A DNA stretch of 64,000 nucleotides from positions 195,242 through 259,241 of the forward strand of contig CP064974.1 in the NCBI GenBank assembly GCA_016699385.1. Direction: 5' to 3'. Position numbers and translations under genes: made by a program. Of the stretch, positions 48,565 through 58,726 are shown in pieces. The notes under the pieces are model-generated. The model did no database searches. It saw only the letters and a program-made list of their open reading frames with translations, and was not told the DNA's origin. The DNA is from Candidatus Moraniibacteriota bacterium. Its GTDB lineage: Bacteria > Patescibacteriota > Minisyncoccia > Moranbacterales > UBA1568. How positions within the stretch are numbered: the first letter of the stretch is position 1; every line of letters starts with the position of its first letter.

Positions 48565-48786
48565 GTGACTTGGAAGATGCAAGGGCATGGTGCGATCTTG
48601 GGAATAGAAGAGCATTCTCAAGGAAATGTCGAATCGACAAGGAATCGGCGACCACTTGAATTGCTTTGTTATGAAGCCTACTCTTTCAAAGAGGAAGCCC
48701 TGGGGAGAGAAAAATATTTGAAAACAAGTGATGGAAAAAAAGACCTGAAGAAGAGATTGACAAAAAGTTTTACGGAAGGGTGCTAG
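48565..48786 (+). pseudogene. GIY-YIG nuclease family protein, N-terminally truncated remnant (GIY strand missing), overlapping the tRNA-Ser 5' end
   Basis: EEHSQGNVESTRNRRPLELLCYEAYSFKEEALGREKYLKTSDGKKDLKKRL matches the C-terminal two-thirds of small GIY-YIG proteins (R..xP..L.Y.E.F....A...E..LK...G). GTG start directly after the upstream stop in the same frame. Confidence 0.55.
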
Positions 48787-48860
48787 AGTGGTCGAATAGG
48801 ACAGTCTCGAAAACTGTTGTACCGGAAACGGTACCGTGGGTTCGAATCCCACCCCTTCCG
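48774..48860 (+). tRNA. tRNA-Ser (anticodon CGA), type II tRNA with long variable arm; no encoded CCA
   Basis: Cloverleaf folded by hand: acceptor GGAAGGG/CCCTTCC, D-stem CUA/UAG, anticodon stem ACAGU/ACUGU with loop CUCGAAA, variable stem-loop UACCG-GAAA-CGGUA, T-arm GUGGG-UUCGAAU-CCCAC, discriminator G. Confidence 0.9.
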
Positions 48861-50330
48861 CATTTGTTCAATATCCGCCGTACCCCCTGCTTTTTCAAGT
48901 ATGCGGTACGGCTGTTTTAGTGTATACGAAGCCATCTCGCCATTTACAATCGTCGCGTTCAAAAGTACCGTTTCCAGTACCTTCCTCTTTTTCACATCAT
49001 CGCCCTCGATAAAATCCTTTTCCGCACCAGAAGCGGACAAAAAGACTTTTTTCACCTGTTCTAAAGTGCGAGTCATGGTTTCGGGATTGTGCCTCTCCAA
49101 TTCCTTGAGTCGCTGTTGTATCTCGGCGGTTTCTTTGTTGAAGGCTTCCAGCTTCGCGTCTACGGTCTCTCCCGCATACTTTCCCGCCAGTTGGATATCA
49201 AGAAGCCTCATCTCTTGTTGTGCGAGTGTCTCGCGCCGTTTTTCGAGGTTTGACTTCATGGTTTCAAAGAAACTCCCGTCTTTTTTGTTTTTCTCTCGGT
49301 CGGCTTCGTAGCACAACTCGATGAATTCTTCGTCAAAGTGAATTTTCTTGAAGATTGAGGCAAGTATTTTCTCGGCTTCTTCACTTCGCATATACTGCTT
49401 GTGCGCTTCACAGTTTCCTTTCCCATTGGTGCAGTAGTAATACGTGAAGCCTTTCTTCTCCATGGCGGTCATGAGACACCCGCACGAATGACAGGTCATA
49501 AAGCCTCGCAAAGGGAAAAAATGTTTCTTGTATCGGCTTCTGTTTTTTCCCGTGAAAACATCCTGTGTCTTCTCAAACAATTCTTTGGATATGATGGTTT
49601 CGTGATTGCCCGAATAATATATGCCGTGGACATACATGATGCCGTGATAGAAAGGGTCTTTGAGAATTTTCTGAATTCTTCCTTTGCGATATTTGTACCC
49701 GCTTCGAGAACGGAAGCCTTCTTGAAAAAGCAGGTCGGATATTTTTTTGAGGCTATAACTTCCCGAAGCGTACAATTCAAAAGCCCTCTTGATAAAGGGG
49801 GCGCGTTCGGTATCAACGAGTATCGTTTTGTTGAGTCGGTCGTTGAGGTATCCAATTTTGGCATAATTGGGGTAGCCGCCATTTTCCAGTTTCGACGCCA
49901 TGCCTCGCTTTACTCGTGTACTCAAGGTGCGGATTTCCTGATTTGCTTCTCCGGTTTTAACACTGAAAAGTACGGCGTCATCGCTTGGCAGATAGCATTT
50001 CTCCATCGTCTGAATTTCCTTGATGATTCCTTCCTGCAAAAGCCACAGGATTTTTCCGCTGTCTATCGGGTTTCTCGAAAGGCGGTCTAATGCCCAGCAG
50101 ACAATGCCGTCTGCTTCGCCGTCTTCAATCATTCGTATCATTTCCGTAAACATCGGGCGATTGTAGGGTTTCTTGGCGGACTTGGATTCGGCGAAGACTT
50201 TGATGATATTCAAGCCCAATTCACTTGCCCGTCTTTGCATGTTGCTGATTTGCGATTCAAGGGAGAGGGCTTGCCGATTCTTGTCTTCGGAAGATTTTCG
50301 GACGTAGAGGAGGTATTTCATAGTGTCCAT
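48783..50330 (-). CDS. Large serine recombinase (resolvase/invertase catalytic domain, recombinase domain, zinc ribbon); annotated C-terminus reads through the tRNA
   Basis: N-terminal YVRKSSEDKNRQALSLESQ (catalytic Ser context), C-terminal CHSCGC...YYYC zinc ribbon; 515 aa. The last ~25 aa are the translated tRNA complement, so the true end is probably earlier. Confidence 0.9.
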   Translation of the reverse strand: MDTMKYLLYVRKSSEDKNRQALSLESQISNMQRRASELGLNIIKVFAESKSAKKPYNRPMFTEMIRMIEDGEADGIVCWALDRLSRNPIDSGKILWLLQEGIIKEIQTMEKCYLPSDDAVLFSVKTGEANQEIRTLSTRVKRGMASKLENGGYPNYAKIGYLNDRLNKTILVDTERAPFIKRAFELYASGSYSLKKISDLLFQEGFRSRSGYKYRKGRIQKILKDPFYHGIMYVHGIYYSGNHETIISKELFEKTQDVFTGKNRSRYKKHFFPLRGFMTCHSCGCLMTAMEKKGFTYYYCTNGKGNCEAHKQYMRSEEAEKILASIFKKIHFDEEFIELCYEADREKNKKDGSFFETMKSNLEKRRETLAQQEMRLLDIQLAGKYAGETVDAKLEAFNKETAEIQQRLKELERHNPETMTRTLEQVKKVFLSASGAEKDFIEGDDVKKRKVLETVLLNATIVNGEMASYTLKQPYRILEKAGGTADIEQMRKGWDSNPRYRFRYNSFRDCPIRPL

Positions 50331-50355
50331 AAGCTACCGAAAACAAAGGATAAAA

Positions 50356-51123
50356 TCAAGCAGACGAAGCATTGAGACGAAAAATCGCGTAGAAAATTTC
50401 TCCGAGGTAATTGCTGGTAAATGTCGTTTCCCACCCATTTTCCATATTTCCAGCATTCTCTTGCATGAAAACTCGGGCGTCGTCGTTGACGATTTCAACT
50501 GGTCTTTCCAAATCCTGTGAACAAAAAAACTTCTTCTTCTTGCCAAGCATTCTTTTGTCGAACATATCTTTCTGCAGGTACTTTGACAGGTATCGTCCCA
50601 AGTTGGAAACATGCCGTACTCGCTTGATTTTGATAAACCCATTGCCCCAAATTTTCTCGATTTCCTTGCTTCTTACATACCGCAAGTTGCAAAGCAGGTG
50701 GTAATGCGCCGCGCCGCCCTCGGGTTTCACGTTTCCGAAAAAATCCACGTCTTTCTGAAATTCCAAGACGGCAAAGTACTGAAACTCGGGAAAGCGGTCT
50801 TTCATGCGCTGGGTGAAGAGATTAAAACAGTGATTCGATTTTTTTCCGTCGGTTATCTTCGAGGTGAGTGTCAAAAACTTTGTGAGTTGTGGGTTTGAGT
50901 TTACAGTCCGTCGAATTTCTCGGCGAGTACGTCGAACGGAGGATTCCGCTTTTTCCGTCTGACCTTTTTCTTCTTTCTTGTCGTTCTCATTTTTTTCTCG
51001 TTTCCTGCGTTTGTAGTTGCGAAGGACGGGTCGGTCTTTGTACTGGTATTGTTCGCATTCAAAACCAGAAACCACCACTTTTTCATAAATTCTCTCGGTA
51101 TACCTTCCCGTAGATGTGTTCAT
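50356..51123 (-). CDS. Rolling-circle replication initiator (HUH endonuclease superfamily Rep)
   Basis: Motif 1 FLTLT, motif 2 AHYHLLCN (HUH), motif 3 GRYLSKYLQK (catalytic Tyr-x-x-Lys). Confidence 0.65.
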   Translation of the reverse strand: MNTSTGRYTERIYEKVVVSGFECEQYQYKDRPVLRNYKRRKREKNENDKKEEKGQTEKAESSVRRTRREIRRTVNSNPQLTKFLTLTSKITDGKKSNHCFNLFTQRMKDRFPEFQYFAVLEFQKDVDFFGNVKPEGGAAHYHLLCNLRYVRSKEIEKIWGNGFIKIKRVRHVSNLGRYLSKYLQKDMFDKRMLGKKKKFFCSQDLERPVEIVNDDARVFMQENAGNMENGWETTFTSNYLGEIFYAIFRLNASSA

Positions 51124-51127
51124 AGAA

Positions 51128-51430
51128 TCAAGTTAAGAGAGGAACACTGGGTGCTTGCATTTCCCTCGCTGGCGCGTCAAGGTCGTGCGCCTTCGGCGCC
51201 TCCACCTTGACCCGCACTCGGGAAATGCGGGTACCCTCATAGGTTTCCTTCGGAAACCTTGTTTCACCGGAAGCCACAGGGGAACGGGTGCCATAAGAAA
51301 ACGCTGAATACAAAGTCGCCATCGAAGCAAGGTACAAGTCGGCTTCTTCATGGTTTATCGTTTCTCCGTGGACGCGGAGGAAGTACTCGATAAGCTTGTC
51401 TCGGAGGTTTTGGGTGAAGGAGTAGGACAC
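51128..51430 (-). CDS. Hypothetical small protein
   Basis: ORF track only; overlaps the candidate origin hairpin, so coding status is doubtful. Confidence 0.2.
   Translation of the reverse strand: MSYSFTQNLRDKLIEYFLRVHGETINHEEADLYLASMATLYSAFSYGTRSPVASGETRFPKETYEGTRISRVRVKVEAPKAHDLDAPAREMQAPSVPLLT
51163..51223. promoter_or_regulatory. GC-rich nested hairpin immediately upstream of rep (GTCAAGGT...ACCTTGAC enclosing GCGCC-TTC-GGCGC): candidate replication origin (dso/sso)
   Basis: Inverted repeats seen directly; position relative to rep fits RC-plasmid origins (inference). Confidence 0.3.
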
Positions 51431-51496
51431 AAAAAAAGACCGTATTGATTTACGGTCTTTAGGGTAGAGAGTTTTGAGGGGACGGTATAAGGCGCG

Positions 51497-52207
51497 CTAG
51501 GTTTTCTTGGGTGATATGCAGTTTGCGCCTTTTTTAAGCCTTGTGATGATGTTTAGAATATCCTCATAGTTGAGTCGTGGTATTTTGTACTTTTCGTTTA
51601 TCTTCGACGCAATGTCTTGTGTTTTCATTCCTGCTTTGTAAAGGCTGAATATTTCCATGTCTCTTTCCAAGTTTTTCCGTCTGTTTTTTCTCCCGAGTTT
51701 TCTTTGCGCCAAGATTTCTTGTTGAGCCCTTTTGATTCTTGGCCAATTGGCTTTCATGTCGCCCCACGACGTTTCGGGGTATATTTTTAATGGGATAACT
51801 CCTCGTGTTTCCGTGGTTGTAAAATATGGGTTGAGGTGCCACATTTCTGAACGTAACTTGCAATTATTCATGTTTCCTTCTTGAACAAGATACAGGATTG
51901 CCAATTGGTATGACTCCGAGAGTATGTATTTTTCTCTCAACGCTTTCACGTCTTTTTTCAAAGGTTCGAGTACGTCCAAGAGGTGTTTCGGCGTACCATC
52001 TTTTTCTCTTTGTTCGGGAGGGGCGGGAAAATGGTATTTTTCCTGCAATACGCGTATGTCTGCCATGAAGTCGTCGTCCGTCATCAAAAGGGAGACTCCT
52101 TGGAGAATTTTTTCTTCGAAGGTGAATTTGGGAGGCATAGGGAAGGTATTTTCTAGGTCAGTGAAGTTATAGGGTATTTTGAGGTTGGTGTCAAAGTGAA
52201 GATGCAA
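51497..52207 (-). CDS. Hypothetical protein with C-terminal HTH-like segment (element 1)
   Basis: 236 aa; C-terminal MKTQDIASKINEKYKIPRLNYEDILNIITRL resembles a DNA-binding HTH. Confidence 0.4.
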   Translation of the reverse strand: MHLHFDTNLKIPYNFTDLENTFPMPPKFTFEEKILQGVSLLMTDDDFMADIRVLQEKYHFPAPPEQREKDGTPKHLLDVLEPLKKDVKALREKYILSESYQLAILYLVQEGNMNNCKLRSEMWHLNPYFTTTETRGVIPLKIYPETSWGDMKANWPRIKRAQQEILAQRKLGRKNRRKNLERDMEIFSLYKAGMKTQDIASKINEKYKIPRLNYEDILNIITRLKKGANCISPKKT

Positions 52208-52356
52208 AGAATGAGGCTTTATGAAGCATTTTTACTGTATTTTCGTGAGTGGGTATTGACTAATAAAAGAGAATATTATATACTCCACAGTTATCGGAAA
52301 CGAAAACCCGTATCACGTCGGCCACGTGAAGAGTACTTTAATTTCGAGGTATCGTC

Positions 52357-52653
52357 ATGGCACAAGTCATTACAGAAGGTAGCGTTCCTTCACCGGAAGA
52401 GTGGTCTACGCAGATTAAATGTATTGGTAGCGGTAGCGATGAAAGTAAAGGATGTGGTGCCATACTTAAAGTTACTAAGGACGATGTAGTCTTGATGAAG
52501 TGGTATGGCACTCACTTCAAGCATCACTATCCGGCGACTCAATGTCCGCGCTGTTTGAAATACACTTACATCAAAGAACTGCCTGATACCATCTGGAAAC
52601 CACTCCTGAAAAAGGGAAAGGCTATTTTTGATGGGGTTGATGACCGTATTTGA
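52357..52653 (+). CDS. Hypothetical zinc-ribbon protein (element 1)
   Basis: CIGSGSDESKGCG ... CPRC cysteine pairs; 98 aa. Confidence 0.35.
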   Translation: MAQVITEGSVPSPEEWSTQIKCIGSGSDESKGCGAILKVTKDDVVLMKWYGTHFKHHYPATQCPRCLKYTYIKELPDTIWKPLLKKGKAIFDGVDDRI

Positions 52654-52807
52654 CGGACAACAACTTTTCCTATCTCGAACACAACTGTCCACACAGAATG
52701 GCGCAATAACCTCGAGAACACGAAGACATCTTGACCGATATGCCCTGTGCGTATCGGTCTTTTTTATGCTACAGTTAGCTGATTTGAGAAATGGCTTTGA
52801 TACACTA

Positions 52808-52843
52808 AATACGTTCTCACTTCGTCCCACCCCTTCCGCCAAT
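52808..52843 (+). repeat. attR-like repeat 1: TACGTTCTCACTTCGTCCCACCCCTTCCGCCAAT (partial tRNA-Ser 3' end)
   Basis: 34-bp sequence identical to 56453-56486; 15-bp core TCCCACCCCTTCCGC identical to the tRNA 3' end. Confidence 0.8.
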
Positions 52844-53281
52844 TTTCATTTTTGTTCGAAACGGTAGAACGTGGAGTGTTGCTTCGTGGTGCGCTCGCTC
52901 TTGTTATTTCGGACAAAAGTAAAAAAGTAAGCAATGCGCGCCTCGCGTTTCCGCTGCTTTGTAAACAGAGGCGTCACAATGGGATCTTTATGTTTTTTAG
53001 CTTGGGATTTGTTACCTGTGTATAGATTTGTGTCGTCCGTATATTGCTATGCCCCAAAAGCTCTTGCACATATCGAACATCGGTACCGTTCTCTAAATTT
53101 CGCTTCACCCCATTCTTTCACGATGCTCGGCGCTGACGCCCGCTCTTAGAAAGAATCCGATTTTGTTTTTCTTTTATTGTAGAGGGGAAATATGGAGTTT
53201 TCTCCGCTTCGCTACGAAAACATTTATCTTATAAGGGAAAAACGGACATAATGCAATTGCTTAGTTTGAAAAATAATAAAT

Positions 53282-53965
53282 ATGAACCCACTTAAAACAA
53301 ATGGTCTAATAATACAGAGCTTTCCGCAAGAGAAATATGAATCTATTCACCTTATTTTAAGTAGCAGATATGCAGAAAAGAATGAATACGAACATTTTTC
53401 AGGAGCGTGGAATGCTATAGCATATCGATACAGAGGAGCAATTGACTATGGAAGTGATTTCGTCAAATTAATAAAATTATACGGAACAGCACCACAGCCA
53501 GAAAAAAGATATTTACAAGAACAAGCTCTTTTTAATCATTTCAGTTCTTGCTTTTCAGTTTTTGAATCAGTGTGTTATGGATTTTTTGCGATAGGATCTA
53601 TTATTAATCCAGAATATTTTTCCATAAGCGACAAAGCTGATCAACGAAAAATATCTCCAGAAACAACAAAAAAAACTTTTCAAAAGGCATTTCCTGATGA
53701 ACAAATCACTAAAACATTAATTGAGTTAACTGCCGATTCAGAATTCGAAAATATTAGAAATACTAGGAATATTCTTATTCATAGAACAGCGCCGGGAAGA
53801 AAGATTTATCTACACATAGGAGAGGATGAATCACTCCCGACAGAATGGAAATTGAACAATAAACCCTTAAATGAATTGATAGTCAAATCAAACGAGGATA
53901 GCATGGAAATGCTTTTAAATAATTTACTAACTGCAGGAGAAGTTTTTTGCAGGTCACATTTATAA
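53282..53965 (+). CDS. Hypothetical protein with C-terminal HEPN-like R-N-x3-H motif (NIRNTRNILIHRT): candidate RNase toxin / abortive-infection effector
   Basis: 227 aa, AT-rich codon usage; the motif was seen directly but the HEPN assignment is by motif only. Confidence 0.45.
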   Translation: MNPLKTNGLIIQSFPQEKYESIHLILSSRYAEKNEYEHFSGAWNAIAYRYRGAIDYGSDFVKLIKLYGTAPQPEKRYLQEQALFNHFSSCFSVFESVCYGFFAIGSIINPEYFSISDKADQRKISPETTKKTFQKAFPDEQITKTLIELTADSEFENIRNTRNILIHRTAPGRKIYLHIGEDESLPTEWKLNNKPLNELIVKSNEDSMEMLLNNLLTAGEVFCRSHL

Positions 53966-53969
53966 TTAT

Positions 53970-54953
53970 ATGGCACGTAAAAATATTTTAAAAATACCAG
54001 CTAAAATAAGAAATCAGATAAAAACATTTAGTCAGGATGATGTTGTTGTAGCTTGTGTAAAATATATTCCAAAAGAAGAAATTCATAGATGCAAACATCT
54101 GAGGATACGCTATATTGACGGCGAACTTATTCTCCCACCTTCGGAAACCCCAAATCCTAATACCGGGAAATTTTCTCGGGCAAACCTGGAAGGTTTGGAG
54201 AAAAAAAGAACTGATTTGCCAAAAATATCAAAAGAATTCAGCTCTGAAGCTCCAAATTGGAATGGAAATGGTGCGCATGTTGTTTCTTATTCGCGAGATG
54301 TATATCGAAAAGATTTTTATCCACCCAAAGAAGTTGAGTTGAAAATTGAGCAAATAGAAAAAAGAGAGCATGGTTTCAAAATAAAATTTTTAATTGATCA
54401 AGTAATTAATCGAAATACTCCGAATTTTGAAAAAGAATTATTGTACAACTTAAATTTATTACAAGAAAACGTTGGAATGATAGATGTCTTTCCGAGTATT
54501 GCAACTTTGGCAGATTACGCAAAAACCGTTTATATTGATTGGGAAATATTACCGCCAGGAACCGTTGATGAAATTATAGAAGCTTTGCTAAAGAACCAAA
54601 AAACAGAAAGTATTACCCCAGATCAAATAAAAATAATGAGAGAAAGAATAGGTGTTATGTCAAAATTAAAGCCCGTTGTTTATATAAAAGGTACAAATGG
54701 TTTTTTAAGATATTTTGGGGCAAAGTTCGGAGATGATTTTGTTGTTTTTGAAAATATAAAATATGGAAACGCCTTATATATAATGTATAATTCATGGGCG
54801 GAGCTAAGTAAAAAAAGCAGGACAGAATTACTCAATGGACCAAGAGAAGACTTTGATCGCATAGAACATAGAGATGGATGGGGTGATGTTTTACAAAAAT
54901 TTGTTAGAGAATATAGGCGTAAAAACAAAACTATAAATGAAGGGCTATTTTAA
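53970..54953 (+). CDS. Hypothetical protein (327 aa), operon partner 4 nt downstream of the HEPN-like gene
   Basis: No recognisable motifs; tight coupling (stop at 53965, start at 53970). Confidence 0.45.
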   Translation: MARKNILKIPAKIRNQIKTFSQDDVVVACVKYIPKEEIHRCKHLRIRYIDGELILPPSETPNPNTGKFSRANLEGLEKKRTDLPKISKEFSSEAPNWNGNGAHVVSYSRDVYRKDFYPPKEVELKIEQIEKREHGFKIKFLIDQVINRNTPNFEKELLYNLNLLQENVGMIDVFPSIATLADYAKTVYIDWEILPPGTVDEIIEALLKNQKTESITPDQIKIMRERIGVMSKLKPVVYIKGTNGFLRYFGAKFGDDFVVFENIKYGNALYIMYNSWAELSKKSRTELLNGPREDFDRIEHRDGWGDVLQKFVREYRRKNKTINEGLF

Positions 54954-55304
54954 AGAAATTTAATTAGAAACCAATTTCCTGTACATGACAAATAAAAGGA
55001 GTTTTTGATTTTTGGCATGCACCCCTACCTCTCTGGCCAAAATCCAAAACAGAAAAAGAAATTTTAAAATTTTTTAAAACAATTCCGACATTAGTCGGAA
55101 AAAAGAAAAGGAATACATCAGCTAACAACGAGTATCCGGTTACGGCTTTTACACAAAAGCCTCCATCCAAATTTTTCCTCCGCTACGCTACAGAAAAACT
55201 TCGGATACTCGTAACGTTAAGTGACATATTTCCAAGTCTCTTTTTTAGAATAAGGAACGAGTGAAAAATTTTCTTTATTTTAATGAGGGGAAATAAGGAA
55301 TTTT

Positions 55305-55580
55305 CTCAGCTTCTTCACTCCGCAAATATCGCTTGCGCGCTTCACAGTTTCCTTTGCCATTGGTGCAGTAGTAATACGTGAAGCCTTTTTTCTCCATGGC
55401 GGTCATGAGACATCCGCACGCGTGGTAATTCATAAAGTCTCGAAGCGGAAAGAAATGCTTTTTGTATCGGCTTCGATTTTTTCCTGTGAAAACATCTTGC
55501 GCCTTCTCAAACAACTCTTTGGAAATGAGAGTGTCGTGATTGCCCGCGTAATATATCCCGTGGACATAGCCTGCCTGCTT
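55305..55580 (-). pseudogene. Serine recombinase gene remnant (internal zinc-ribbon region only)
   Basis: 79-aa ORF MFEKAQDVFTGKNRSRYKKHFFPLRDFMNYHACGCLMTAMEKKGFTYYYCTNGKGNCEARKRYLRSEEAEKI is ~90% identical to residues of the full recombinase at 49380-49650; nucleotide similarity extends about 270 bp. Confidence 0.8.
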
Positions 55581-55620
55581 GTGGTAATGTCAAAATGTAA
55601 AAATTAGGTAAAATAAAAAT

Positions 55621-56337
55621 ATGAATAAAAATATAAGAACAGAGATTGCTGTGGGAATAATACTTGTCATTTTTATTGTTATTGTGGGTTTTATTTGGCT
55701 GGGTAGCAAACAGCAAACATTGGATTCAGTAGTTAAACCCGTGGTCAAATCCGTAGAAAATCAAAGTATAACTGAAAAGAAAAGTCTTCCAGCAACTCTT
55801 TCTTCTTCTGCTGCTGGTAGAGATACGTCTGGACGTGAGCTTAAAGTCGAAGACATATCAATTTCAAATGTTAAATTCACTTTGCCAAACTCAACCATTG
55901 ATTCCCCTGTAAAAAATAATTTTTCATTTCAAAATGTAAAAAAATATACGTTGACGACGCCTACAGGAGTCGCACCAATTTTTTATGTTGACGACCAACC
56001 ACAGAGAGACGGGACTGTTAAGAGTGTAGAAGTGGATGTCCCAAGTGGAAAATCTATAATAGGCGTCAGAGTAATAGTTAGCAACGAGAAAAACACTGCT
56101 AGTTTGTCAATAAACCCGAATTTTCTTTTATCAGTCAATGATATAAAAGTAGCCCCAGTTAACTATAATGTTGCTAGCTTTAGTATTCCGGGTGGGGCTT
56201 CGGTTGAATTTGAGTATTTATTTGCAGTGGGTGAAAAGACAAATACTTTCGTATTGAGTTTTGGCGAAAATACGGAAAATCCAGAGGGTCGACTTCTTGT
56301 TGACTTTGGGCAGAAAAATTTTACCTCATTAAAGTAG
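55621..56337 (+). CDS. Hypothetical membrane-anchored/secreted beta-rich protein (element 2)
   Basis: N-terminal TM IAVGIILVIFIVIVGFIWLG then a Ser/Thr/Asn/Val-rich domain. Confidence 0.45.
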   Translation: MNKNIRTEIAVGIILVIFIVIVGFIWLGSKQQTLDSVVKPVVKSVENQSITEKKSLPATLSSSAAGRDTSGRELKVEDISISNVKFTLPNSTIDSPVKNNFSFQNVKKYTLTTPTGVAPIFYVDDQPQRDGTVKSVEVDVPSGKSIIGVRVIVSNEKNTASLSINPNFLLSVNDIKVAPVNYNVASFSIPGGASVEFEYLFAVGEKTNTFVLSFGENTENPEGRLLVDFGQKNFTSLK

Positions 56338-56451
56338 TTTTTTTGCTTCTCACACAGTGCTTATCTTGAAGCCTCCACATAGGAGGCTTTTTGTTTCCAA
56401 AAATTTATCGTACAATCATGGGTACTTGGTGGAATGATGGAAATTGAAGCA

Positions 56452-56487
56452 CATACGTTCTCACTTCGTCCCACCCCTTCCGCCAAT
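56452..56487 (+). repeat. attR-like repeat 2 (second partial tRNA-Ser 3' end copy)
   Basis: Identical 34-bp sequence to 52809-52842. Confidence 0.8.
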
Positions 56488-56890
56488 CTCAAGTTGATGA
56501 AGAAACACTAATTCAGATAAAAGAAAAAATTAAGGATAATTTAAAGTAGTGCCCCTTTGTCTGACTTTCTCGCTATCGCTCGAACCACGCTTCGCTCTTA
56601 CTTCGCTACGCTACATTCGTGTCTTCAGCAAGAGATAAAAGAAAAATTGCTCGGCTTGAGATCCCTCCTAAATTTCTTTCGCTACATTCCGCAAACTTCT
56701 CATAATCCTGACGTTATTCGCAATTTCACTTTGCTCCATTGCGAATAAAGCCTGCGGATGATAATCTTGCTATTCTCCTCCATTTCGCTTCGCGAAACTC
56801 CGTATAACAGCGAGATATTCGAAATTTTCCTTTCAAGAATTTCATTTCTTTTCAGAAAAACGTCGCATCATCCGTAGGCGTTATATTCAA

Positions 56891-57380
56891 TTCGGGCTGG
56901 CTCGCAAAACATTTAAATCCTTGCAATTTTTACTATAATTATGACTATGAAAATATATTTTGCTGGTTCAATTCGTGGCGGAAGAGGTGATAAAGATTTA
57001 TATCTTCAGCTAATCCAACACCTCGCTAAACATGGTAAAGTTTTAACTGAACATGTCGGCGATGGAAACCTAACAGAGATCGGTGAAGACGGCCCCAATG
57101 ACGAATATATCTACGAGCGTGATATGGATTGGGTTCGCCAATCAGATGTTGTTATTGCCGAAGTTTCCACACCATCGCTCGGTGTTGGATACGAAATCGG
57201 AAAAGCTGAGGATATGAACATAAAAATGTTGTGTCTTTATAGGAATCAGCAAAATAAAAGATTATCTGCAATGATTAGTGGAAATCCAAACGTAAAAATT
57301 GCAAGATATGAAACTTTTGAAGATGCAGTTTCTCATATTGATAGTTTCTTTGAATCATTGAAGTAGCGAGCCAGCCCGAA
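56891..57380. repeat. Perfect 15-bp inverted repeat TTCGGGCTGGCTCGC / GCGAGCCAGCCCGAA flanking a single gene, plus roughly 25-bp direct repeats GCA(A/G)ACTTCTCATAATCCTGAC(G/A)TTA at 56692-56717 and 57464-57489
   Basis: Seen directly at 56891-56905 and 57366-57380; the right arm begins inside the stop codon. Confidence 0.8.
56941..57366 (+). CDS. Nucleoside 2-deoxyribosyltransferase family protein (DNPH1/Rcl-like)
   Basis: KIYFAGSIRGGRGD ... E catalytic pattern typical of 2'-deoxynucleoside 5'-phosphate N-hydrolase / NDT family. Confidence 0.7.
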   Translation: MTMKIYFAGSIRGGRGDKDLYLQLIQHLAKHGKVLTEHVGDGNLTEIGEDGPNDEYIYERDMDWVRQSDVVIAEVSTPSLGVGYEIGKAEDMNIKMLCLYRNQQNKRLSAMISGNPNVKIARYETFEDAVSHIDSFFESLK

Positions 57381-57652
57381 CTCTGAAATTTTCCTTCGGA
57401 ACGTTGCACTAAATTTCAGCCCTTCGGGGAATATAACAAGTATTATGAGGTTACGAAGTCTTGCAGACTTCTCATAATCCTGACATTAGCTGAAATATTC
57501 CTTTAGTCAGGAATTTTGATAAGCTTTTCAGTAGGGGATAAATTTAATTTTTCGTATACTATAGGGAGCGGTGGAAGGTAATAGAGTGCTTTCTTTCACT
57601 CTGGTACAGAAAACGAATTGTTTTTAAATCTTTCATCGGTAATGATGATATT

Positions 57653-58069
57653 ATGAAAATTACAGTTCAAACAACGATATCAGCAGACAAAAAGAAGGTT
57701 TGGGATCTTTATACAAATCCTAAGCATATTGTAAATTGGAATTTTGCATCAGAAGACTGGTGTTGTCCGAGTGCGGAAAATGATCTACAGGTTGGCGGGA
57801 AATACAAGGCACGAATGGAAGCAAAGGACAAAAGTTTTGGTTTTGATTTTGAAGCAACCTACAGTGAAGTTGTCGAGGGTGAAAGATTTTCATCCACTCT
57901 GGAAGATGGAAGAGAAGTAAATGTTTCTTTTGAAAACCTCGATGGTCAAACCAAGGTAGTAGTCGTTTTTGATGCAGAAAAAGAAAATTCTGAAGAAAAA
58001 CAAAGAAGTGGTTGGCAATCAATACTGGATAATTTTCGGTCTTATGCTGAAAGAGAAAAAAATGGGTAA
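57653..58069 (+). CDS. SRPBCC superfamily protein (AHSA1/START-like, YndB-type)
   Basis: 138 aa; KVWDLYTNPKHIVNW...GGKYKARMEAKDKSFGFDFEATY pattern. Confidence 0.65.
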   Translation: MKITVQTTISADKKKVWDLYTNPKHIVNWNFASEDWCCPSAENDLQVGGKYKARMEAKDKSFGFDFEATYSEVVEGERFSSTLEDGREVNVSFENLDGQTKVVVVFDAEKENSEEKQRSGWQSILDNFRSYAEREKNG

Positions 58070-58340
58070 AAACGATATTGAAACTAGCGTTGTTCACAAG
58101 ATACCTTCTGACCTAAACGAAGTCTTGACTTCTCGTTCAGACGTGCTTGAAAAATGGAACAAACTCACCCCATTGGCACGCAATGAGTGGATATGCTGGG
58201 TGACCATTGTCAAAAAACAAGAAACACGTAAAGAACATCTGGTTCGTTTGCAAGAGGATATTCTGAAAGGGAAAAAGCGACCCTGTTGTTGGCCGGGGTG
58301 TCCGCATCGCAGAGAAAGTGCGAAAAAGTGGTTTAAGTAA
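58062..58340 (+). CDS. YdeI/OmpD-associated family protein
   Basis: [33 protein letters not shown] matches the conserved core of that family; start chosen at MGKNDIE. Confidence 0.6.
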
Positions 58341-58575
58341 AACGAAATACATCGCATTACTGAGAGGAATAAATGTCGGAGGAAATCGAAAAGTTGAGAT
58401 GAAAAAACTCAAAAAACTTTTCGAATCTTTGGGCTACGCAGATGTTGTAACGTATTTGAATTCCGGAAATGTTCTATTTGAATCAGATACGGAACAGGAT
58501 ACTTTGCAGAAAGAGATTCCAAAAAATTGGACAAATCTTTGCATAAAAGAATTCTTGGAGGCACTGTGGATATGA
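58318..58575 (+). pseudogene. DUF1697 family protein, N-terminal fragment only (85 aa versus about 180 aa typical)
   Basis: [31 protein letters not shown] matches the DUF1697 N-terminus; the ORF terminates early. Confidence 0.55.
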
Positions 58576-58726
58576 CTTCTGAGAGATGAAATGAGGAGAA
58601 AAGAACCGCGAATATTTCTGAAAAAACAAAGAAATTTGACAATTCATTGCGGAGCGTCGAGAATGATTGTACGCTTCTCTTTGTCTTTGCAGTCTCGCTT
58701 TTGAACGGGACTCGTGTTCTACTTGT

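Follow-up and report, generated by a model that had tools for sequence, protein, structure and literature searches.

An apparently intact rolling-circle element and relics of older insertions at a probable tRNA-Ser integration hot spot in a Candidatus Moraniibacteriota genome

The small integrative plasmids of the pSAM2 type in actinomycetes, or actinomycete integrative and conjugative elements (AICEs), carry a tyrosine integrase, Xis and a conjugation gene, and integration at a tRNA 3' end that spares the tRNA is a niche usually held by tyrosine integrases. The 64,000-nt stretch of DNA analyzed here (the window), from a Candidatus Moraniibacteriota bacterium of the Candidate Phyla Radiation (CPR), contains an element (element 1) that is like these plasmids in being small, in its integration at a tRNA 3' end and in its predicted excision as a circle and rolling-circle (RC) replication by an HUH-type replication protein (Rep). 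It differs from them in having a large serine recombinase (LSR), no transfer gene, a length of only 4 kb and a CPR host. Element 1 looks like an apparently intact integrative RC plasmid-like replicon and the newest insertion at its site. Taking the reading as a whole, we consider it probable that the tRNA-Ser(CGA) gene downstream of the pyruvate kinase gene (pyk) is an integration hot spot with 9.8 kb of lineage-specific DNA from at least three insertions, in which the intact element 1 is the newest layer and the older layers are relics of a tyrosine-recombinase island and of a second LSR element. For a serine integrase it is less usual to target a tRNA end without loss of the tRNA; element 1 is a fresh example of familiar mobile DNA, with no new mechanism or principle.

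With the phage-type LSRs (A118/LI, TP901-1, phiC31, Bxb1 and the Ccr proteins of SCCmec) the recombinase of element 1 shares the Resolvase-Recombinase-zinc ribbon architecture and a predicted use of element and host attachment (att) sites of limited identity with a fixed crossover, whereas element 1 spares the tRNA whose 3' end it targets, its predicted attP and attB share 15 bp, and the attP overlaps the last recombinase codons, the stop codon coming from the host's antisense tRNA. The Rep motifs FLTLT, HYHLL and YxxKY and a hairpin with CTTGAT beside rep are those of pC194/phiX174-type replicons, from which element 1 differs in being coupled to an integrase and chromosomal, with a putative nick site. 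Integrative mobilizable elements (IMEs) with serine recombinases have very short direct repeats and disrupt dispensable genes (PMC5704250). In the accretion of integrative and conjugative elements (ICEs), IMEs and cis-mobilizable elements (CIMEs) (PMC5704250), as at this locus, successive insertions occupy one att site, relics keep att and lose recombination genes, and internal hybrid sites are present; co-excision is possible, repeats 1 and 3 (below) being formally attL x attR. The locus differs in that at least two recombinase classes (serine and tyrosine) are layered and in that the relics appear to be fused by deletion and form no clean tandem. No report of integrative RC/LSR elements of this kind in CPR bacteria was found in the searchable literature.

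The locus is built from the following features, in order along the window.

48774-48861, + strand: tRNA-Ser(CGA), called by ARAGORN and Rfam; the 3' end forms the attachment-site B arm
48847-48861, + strand: repeat 1 (attL core), the last 15 nt of tRNA-Ser(CGA)
48862-52839: element 1 (3,978 bp), with a complete LSR, an HUH Rep and an origin
48862-48912, no strand assigned: P' arm of element 1 (ATTTGTTCAATATCCGCC...), whose hairpin (GCCGTACC...GGTACGGC) precedes TGTTTT
52809-52843, + strand: repeat 2 (attR of element 1), a 31-bp P arm (pseudo-tRNA 3' end) plus CAAT
56388-56487, + strand: repeat 3 and relic right end, the attR of the relic element (P arm plus CAAT)
56484-58627, + strand: accessory DNA beyond repeat 3, low in GC and lineage-specific

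tRNA-Ser(CGA) is the sole tRNA called in the window, with ARAGORN and Rfam in agreement, and its 3'-end 15-mer TCCCACCCCTTCCGC has exactly three copies there, starting at 48847, 52825 and 56469 and all on the + strand (0.12 expected by chance; none of 100 shuffles gave three matches). A first-pass annotation of the stretch had listed these three copies, each of which is an exact match, and had placed the latter two in identical 34-bp repeats; the identity holds (100% between 52809-52843 and 56453-56487) and the length is 35 bp. Upstream of the tRNA lies pyk, and the downstream flank consists of a rodZ-like helix-turn-helix (HTH) gene, recA and tuf. The relatives of the pyruvate kinase, the closest of which is 95% identical, place the host in Candidatus Moraniibacteriota and include a complete genome of 1.05 Mb, in agreement with the earlier impression of a small, streamlined genome. 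The order pyk, tRNA-Ser(CGA), variable DNA, HTH gene and recA is kept in relatives (their loci are given L numbers here), with pyk-tRNA-Ser retained in L015, L011, L012 and L013. The interval from the tRNA to the HTH gene measures 9,766 bp in the window (48862-58627) versus 5.5 kb in L015 and 1.9 kb in L011, where unrelated inserts occupy the syntenic site before synteny resumes and the island is absent. Because relatives lack the island genes between the tRNA and the HTH gene, the island is not vertical core DNA, the explanation that the first-pass annotation had named as fatal to its own. The GC content, which it had proposed to compare with the flanks, is 0.447 in element 1 and 0.32-0.37 in most of 52840-56483, against ~0.48 in the flanks, and in this respect the island stands out as supposed; its end at repeat 3 does not hold, since low-GC, non-syntenic DNA runs a further 2.1 kb to 58627. 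No more tRNA fragments that could mark an outer border of the island turned up in a search for them. Look-ups of the exact proteins encoded in the flanks (pyk, rodZ-like gene, MazG) gave no match that could provide an empty-site allele. A metagenome scan with the tRNA 3' end returned 120 loci, all from unrelated phyla and identical at no more than 74 of the 88 tRNA positions, which served only to establish the native tRNA end.

Two side observations concern tRNA-Ser genes downstream of pyk. In a more distant Moranbacterium (L041, 11493-14370), a tRNA-Ser(GGA) downstream of pyk ends ...CCGC/ATCT, like an LSR attL, and is followed by a 318-aa ORF and then by an LSR of 33% identity that does not abut the tRNA, a variant of the hot spot. 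In the window, 48819-48834 in the tRNA variable arm and 48965-48980 in the LSR coding region form a 16-nt inverted repeat (94% complementary); it shows no covariation in L008, was rejected as meaningful and is probably due to chance.

Element 1 itself contains the following features.

48783-50330, - strand: LSR of 515 aa with Resolvase, Recombinase and Zn_ribbon_recom domains
50356-51123, - strand: HUH rolling-circle Rep of 255 aa (PF23343 REP_ORF2-G2P, 8e-15; PHROG 3419)
51124-51136, - strand: putative double-strand-origin nick motif TTAACTTGATTCT, directly 5' of the rep ATG
51149-51236 (long, imperfect) and 51241-51259 (short), no strand assigned: origin hairpins, from folding and conservation
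51128-51430, - strand: orf100, N-terminal half kept as protein, C-terminal half overlapping the origin
51497-52207, - strand: orf236 (213 aa from the ATG at 52138), all-helical with a weak C-terminal HTH
52357-52653, + strand: orf98, a small four-Cys protein (C22, C33, C63, C66) in a variable cargo slot

The LSR abuts the tRNA and is complete. Its catalytic domain (PF00239, 1.4e-20, residues 8-152) contains the serine motif YxRxS(S/T) as YVRKSSED (residues 9-16) and is followed by PF07508 (3.7e-16) and PF13408 (3.8e-06), both above their cut-offs. The protein matches the PHROG 95 integrase family (2e-73) and is 95% identical over 492 aa to the LSR of L008, an element of the same type; the nearest solved structure is that of the A118/LI integrase, to whose C-terminal domain (4kis) it aligns. 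The reading frame has no stop before the crossover, so that the last 26 codons are antisense tRNA, and in the circular form the LSR is predicted to end with a different 24-residue tail. A tail swapped upon integration was considered as a conserved functional segment and rejected, as L002 and L096 differ in their tails from the crossover onward; the overlap is therefore treated as an attP lying on the last LSR codons and not as a switch.

The att sites would place the crossover at the very end of the tRNA. The 31 bp of the P arm, ATACGTTCTCACTTCGTCCCACCCCTTCCGC, recur at the far end of the L008 element (also in L009) although the L008 tRNA ends TCTCACCTCCTCCGC, differing at 3 positions, and this sequence is therefore an element-borne pseudo-tRNA P arm. 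The attL and attR of the window share the 15-bp core and those of L008 share only TCCGCATC, which would place the crossover inside TCCGC. Since native tRNA-Ser genes end ...CCGCCA (in the relatives and in the metagenome loci), repeats 2 and 3 both carry the CCA trailer of the tRNA, and since both read CCGC/CAAT they are both of the attR type, not the attL/attR pair of one element. On the other side of the crossover, the bases of the P' arm encode on the - strand the last conserved LSR codons, and P' arms are conserved across elements integrated at tRNA-Ser and at tRNA-Gln. The homologue of the P' hairpin in L001, L093 and L096 is a clean stem followed by a T-run, and in the window as in these elements the hairpin and T-run lie within ~15-50 nt of the tRNA 3' end, on the tRNA strand; judging from this arrangement the hairpin may terminate tRNA transcription, replacing the tRNA's own terminator after integration. 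The Gln-type elements have no long repeats at their ends, as expected for serine recombinases.

The module of origin, rep and LSR recurs across Moranbacteria and related lineages. A small ORF followed by rep and then the LSR forms the same block in five independent relatives, and in four lineages (window included) the LSR gene runs into an opposite-strand tRNA gene, namely tRNA-Ser(TGA) in L008/L009, tRNA-Gln(TTG) in L001 and L005, tRNA-Gln(CTG) in L093-L095 and tRNA-Ser(CGA) in the window. The conserved LSR protein ends at the junction each time (...QMR or ...MLG) and takes its stop codon from the antisense tRNA. At the same pyk-linked locus in L073, an LSR of 36% identity reads into tRNA-Ser(GGA). 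Searches of IMG/VR with Rep and LSR returned only two distant Rep loci. The LSRs of L002/L003 (LSR end 5112) and L096 (LSR end ~12376) are ~35 aa longer and have no adjacent tRNA; the left arms of these modules resemble P arms (GTTCCCATGTGTACCCCATCGTCCCAGC in L002), and from their layout these modules may represent either attP forms that sit unintegrated on larger replicons or insertions at sites other than tRNA genes. Next to the L096 module are ribosomal protein genes and a type I restriction-modification system. A displaced pseudo-tRNA-Ser(TGA) with its first 14 nt gone and a 30-nt GC-rich insertion in the T loop is found in L008 at ~230-340 on the - strand, separated from the far end of the LSR element by 620 bp that contain one 136-aa ORF, and therefore the tRNA-Ser(TGA) there has also collected more than one element.

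The Rep and the DNA upstream of its gene have the properties of an RC replication module. The three Rep motifs read FLTLT, HYHLL (HUH) and YLSKYLQK (catalytic Tyr), as the first-pass annotation had recognized from the letters. The 318 Rep homologues include named sequences only from Patescibacteria, and a comparison with plasmid and microvirus Reps, also proposed there, gave 33-42% identity to the Reps of small Firmicutes RC plasmids (Bacillus, Geobacillus and Fusobacterium plasmids) and 31-34% to Microviridae VP4, the best characterized matches being the plasmid Reps. The GC-rich long hairpin upstream of rep, likewise noted before, has a z-score of -4.6, with none of 200 shuffles folding as well, and the ~190 nt upstream of rep are almost invariant in five elements as the neighboring DNA diverges. 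CTTG/ATA is the nick sequence of phiX174/pC194-type origins. Within this region TTAACTTGATTCT is invariant in the 5 elements, CTTAACTTGATTnTATGnACACATCTA persists in Rep relatives down to 45% identity beside different GC hairpins at the same position, and the TTAACTTGAT origin motif is kept across Rep relatives of 45-100% identity, each with its own hairpin. By analogy we infer that the hairpin and the TTAACTTGAT region 5' of rep would constitute the double-strand origin. With the LSR at the tRNA, the HUH motifs and the origin hairpin all in place, the earlier proposal of an integrated RC replicon stands. Two Rep-family contigs of ~4 kb, L010 (3,981 bp) and L098 (4,044 bp), have no LSR but retain the origin motif (TTAACTTGAT/TTAACTAGAT), and SocA_Panacea and DUF2726 genes are further present on L098. 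Terminal overlap indicating circularity of L010 and L098 was looked for and none was found.

The Rep matches Microviridae VP4 and PHROG families annotated 'rolling circle DNA replication initiation', and inoviruses with serine recombinases are known, including in CPR bacteria (PMC6813254), so that element 1 might be the integrated form of a single-stranded DNA phage or its satellite and not a plasmid. We find this unlikely: the three remaining ORFs include no capsid, morphogenesis ATPase or other PHROG match, only 4 kb are available, the best Rep matches are plasmid Reps, and IMG/VR yields almost no matches. With no capsid or morphogenesis gene in element 1, a plasmid-like element is likelier than a virus.

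The other ORFs of element 1 have few relatives. The N-terminal half of orf100/orf97 is conserved as protein though the DNA diverges, whereas the C-terminal half, which overlaps the origin hairpin, is conserved as DNA; the N-terminal half thus looks like a real small protein. For orf236 there are only 9 homologues, including L008 orf213 (85% identical); its AF2 model is of low confidence (pLDDT 69.5), the HTH_7/RovC matches are sub-threshold, and a fold search with the model gave no significant match. No family match to orf98 was found in Pfam, PHROG or further profiles, and a terminator-like hairpin lies nearby (52733-52759). PADLOC gave no match among the island ORFs. Interior pieces of element 1 are present at 99.9-100% identity in two other metagenomes.

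The following cycle would account for these features. The excised circle would carry an attP made up of the 31-bp P arm, the crossover in TCCGC and the P' arm from the last LSR codons, with the predicted junction ...ACTTCGTCCCACCCCTTCCGC/ATTTGTTCAATATCC; the corresponding empty-site junction is predicted to read ...GGTTCGAATCCCACCCCTTCCGC/CAATTTTCATTTTTG. The LSR would recombine attP with the acceptor/T-arm end of the tRNA, and integration would leave the tRNA intact to the discriminator base and displace the CCA trailer to attR. Excision would need a directionality factor, for which orf98 and orf236 are at the candidate stage. After excision the Rep would nick CTTG/AT beside the hairpin, leading to rolling-circle copying of the circle.

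The DNA between repeats 2 and 3 is a mosaic, as shown by both gene content and GC content.

52840-53165: GC 0.448, containing the tyrosine-recombinase remnant
52977-53117, - strand: C-terminal remnant of a tyrosine recombinase, 47 codons, from a six-frame reading of 52840-53165
53166-55299, + strand: AT-rich block (GC 0.323) with orf227, orf327, copies of the 'mot' motif (53182 and 55285) and a long hairpin repeat (55110-55233)
55300-55568, - strand: fragment of a second LSR, codons 233-322 (269 bp, GC 0.446), frame open, one zinc-ribbon Cys lost
55569-56387: GC 0.365, containing orf238
55621-56337, + strand: orf238, predicted to be membrane-anchored, in the cargo slot of the relic element
56388-56483: GC 0.417, right end of the relic element

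In place of an LSR, for which 52840-53165 was searched with none found, the same search exposed the tyrosine-recombinase remnant. It scores 34.9 bits with PF00589 (cut-off 27.1; 1.7e-8) and 50.3 bits with both TIGR02249 (integron integrase) and XerD, which assigns it to the Xer/IntI clade. It holds the catalytic Tyr box, lies 137 bp from repeat 2 and is also present in the sister strain L103 (143-283, - strand), there with an ...IKSPL end. The second-LSR fragment is 86% identical to 49366-49634 of element 1 and 89% identical in nucleotides to the L008 LSR, and the last 96 bp before repeat 3 (from 56388) belong to a 106-bp alignment with the L008 right end at 88% identity; these are the only parts of 52840-56483 that match the L008 element (88-89%). 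Between them, orf238 is placed by position and strand in the cargo slot that is occupied by orf98 in element 1 and by orf137 in L008. At its left edge the LSR fragment shares a 13-nt microhomology, TTTTCTCnGCTTC, with the 'mot' motif GAGGGGAAATAwGGAGTTTTCTCCGCTTC of the AT-rich block, to judge from the sequence a signature of a microhomology-mediated join. The sister strains are informative for the same boundaries. L103 corresponds to 52835-55231 at 98% identity, its contig starting inside repeat 2. L102 corresponds to 53370-55231 at 98.6%, continues with other genes, one for a cyclodipeptide synthase and one polyketide-cyclase-like, before it matches 57623-58003 at 97.6%; the AT-rich block in L102 is therefore contiguous with the DNA from beyond repeat 3, and the LSR fragment, orf238 and repeat 3 are absent.

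These data bear on the strict form of a two-element tandem, in which 52840-56468 is one decayed sibling of element 1 with the AT-rich genes as its cargo. Repeats 2 and 3 are indeed identical over 35 bp, and the LSR fragment and the right end are both L008-like. However, it is a tyrosine-recombinase remnant and not an LSR that adjoins repeat 2, the LSR fragment lying 2.46 kb from repeat 2, where the recombinase of a sibling should abut; sister strains have the AT-rich genes but neither the LSR relic nor repeat 3; the GC content is mosaic; and the LSR fragment is attached through a microhomology junction. A single sibling is thus improbable, and the interval between repeats 2 and 3 is not a single element. 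Of the second element envisaged by the first-pass annotation, the AT-richness and the recombinase copy of ~270 bp (269 bp) are borne out, and the single decayed sibling gives way to a mosaic of at least two relics; likewise its successive insertions at the tRNA are upheld as accretion, with at least three elements in place of two. What is expected of tandem accretion is found here, namely three copies of the att core, an internal att site and a decayed older LSR relic that is 88-89% identical to L008.

The AT-rich block and the DNA beyond repeat 3 contain an array of accessory genes, all on the + strand and separated by repeated intergenic units.

53282-53965, + strand: orf227, HEPN-like (sub-threshold, Cthe_2314-like)
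53970-54953, + strand: orf327, with no Pfam domain
56941-57366: nucleoside 2-deoxyribosyltransferase gene, beyond repeat 3
57653-58069: AHSA1 gene, beyond repeat 3
57969-58340: OmdA/YdeI gene, beyond repeat 3
58318-58575: DUF1697 fragment, beyond repeat 3
55110-55233 and 57434-57488: long hairpins, with a right half at ~56690-56725 and a further copy in L102

The 602 homologues of orf327 (54-60% identity) are spread across phyla (Moranbacteria, Dadabacteria, Sphingomonas). The unit of orf227 and orf327 is conserved in L102, L103 and L104, where in L104 (8352-10003) it directly follows hsdR-hsdM-hsdS; the pair is a candidate defense module, for which PADLOC gave no match. The long hairpins have conserved ends, GCTAAC-A...AAC-GTTA(AGT), and covarying stems. 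The intergenic units (53166-53220, 54998-55311, 56560-56740 and 57390-57505; in L102 1629-1975 and 2686-3030) include the hairpin GGAGTTTTGAATTTTGG...CCAAAATCC, and the motif GAGGGGAAATAwGGAGTTTTCTCCGCTTCGCTACG marks the two junctions with truncated recombinases and also precedes genes. Across 2 Mb of compared loci, the hairpin and 'mot' repeats were found only in the window and two sister contigs.

Such an array might also be the remains of an integron, with the tyrosine-recombinase remnant as the end of intI and the hairpins, bordered by ...AAC and GTTA, as attC-like cassette borders, which would make the region a cassette platform in a CPR bacterium. As in integrons and clusters of attC sites lacking integron-integrases (CALINs), a remnant of the Xer/IntI clade is oriented against a set of small accessory genes that fit the cassette type (AHSA1, DUF1697, YdeI, deoxyribosyltransferase), and the hairpins have conserved ends (GCTAAC...GTTAAGT) and covarying stems. 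The remnant scores equally on the integron-integrase and XerD models and the alignment reaches the last residues of the remnant with the integron model alone, and the window and a sister strain diverge exactly after ...AACGTTAA. The polarity and number of the hairpins and one of the cassette borders, however, do not fit: the extra bases (bulge) are on the arm opposite to that of a canonical attC, there are only 2-3 hairpins and no others in the 2 Mb compared (80 loci of Moraniibacteriota and other genomes among them), and no hairpin coincides with the second strain boundary (57623). Moreover, only the last 47 codons survive, the IntI-specific insertion region being gone from the gene, and ordinary genomic islands just as typically have an integrase next to a tRNA gene. 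A decayed integron is on this evidence unlikely.

Layered insertion at the tRNA, with element 1 as the newest element, can be written as a history of four steps. An L008-like LSR element would have integrated and produced repeat 3 as its attR against the then-native trailer CAATCTCAAG. A tyrosine-recombinase island at the tRNA end or a copy of it would have brought CAATTTTCATT... and the AT-rich genes. A microhomology-mediated deletion would have fused both relics, and deletions would have removed most of both recombinase genes. Element 1 would have come last, integrating at the tRNA to give repeat 2 against CAATTTTCATT... As a reconstruction this history reproduces all three junctions, without fixing the relative order of the L008-like and tyrosine-recombinase insertions.

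Several points weigh against this account. In L102 no attR separates the AT-rich block from the AHSA1 region, for which extra events are needed. The nick position is assigned by analogy with phiX174 and pC194, and the candidates for a directionality factor, orf98 and orf236, have no family or fold match. The att sites show no obvious dyad symmetry. In the LI-integrase system the motif bound by the zinc-ribbon domain (ZD) is 5 bp farther from the center in attP than in attB (PMC3783163), and a corresponding shift can be drawn for GTTC, whose distance from the core end grows from 18 nt in the tRNA arm to 23 nt in the P arm, but for a motif of 4-6 nt with an alternative alignment this is statistically not convincing. 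Searches for the exact P arm in IMG/VR and JGI metagenomes gave no match, no junction of an excised circle (P/P') was found, and neither was an empty site of this exact lineage. Finally, none of the three junctions in the window is crossed by an independent contig. An assembly artefact, unrelated contigs of a metagenome-assembled genome having been joined into a chimera at the repeats, could draw on this last point and on the start of L103 inside repeat 2, but is very unlikely, as the layout of tRNA/LSR...P arm was assembled independently in L008 and L009, synteny is coherent on both sides and the internal pieces are confirmed by L100-L103.

Mobile elements of CPR bacteria (Patescibacteria) are poorly described and their hosts are hard to manipulate genetically. 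The compact module in which origin and Rep are combined with an LSR whose attB is a tRNA end could serve as a template for replicating or integrating vectors for CPR bacteria. Strains that are 98% identical differ in gene content at the hot spot, and an integron-like platform, if true, would explain such differences between sister strains by cassette exchange. Even a streamlined genome of ~1 Mb keeps a tRNA hot spot of fast turnover, hit by elements with serine and with tyrosine recombinases.

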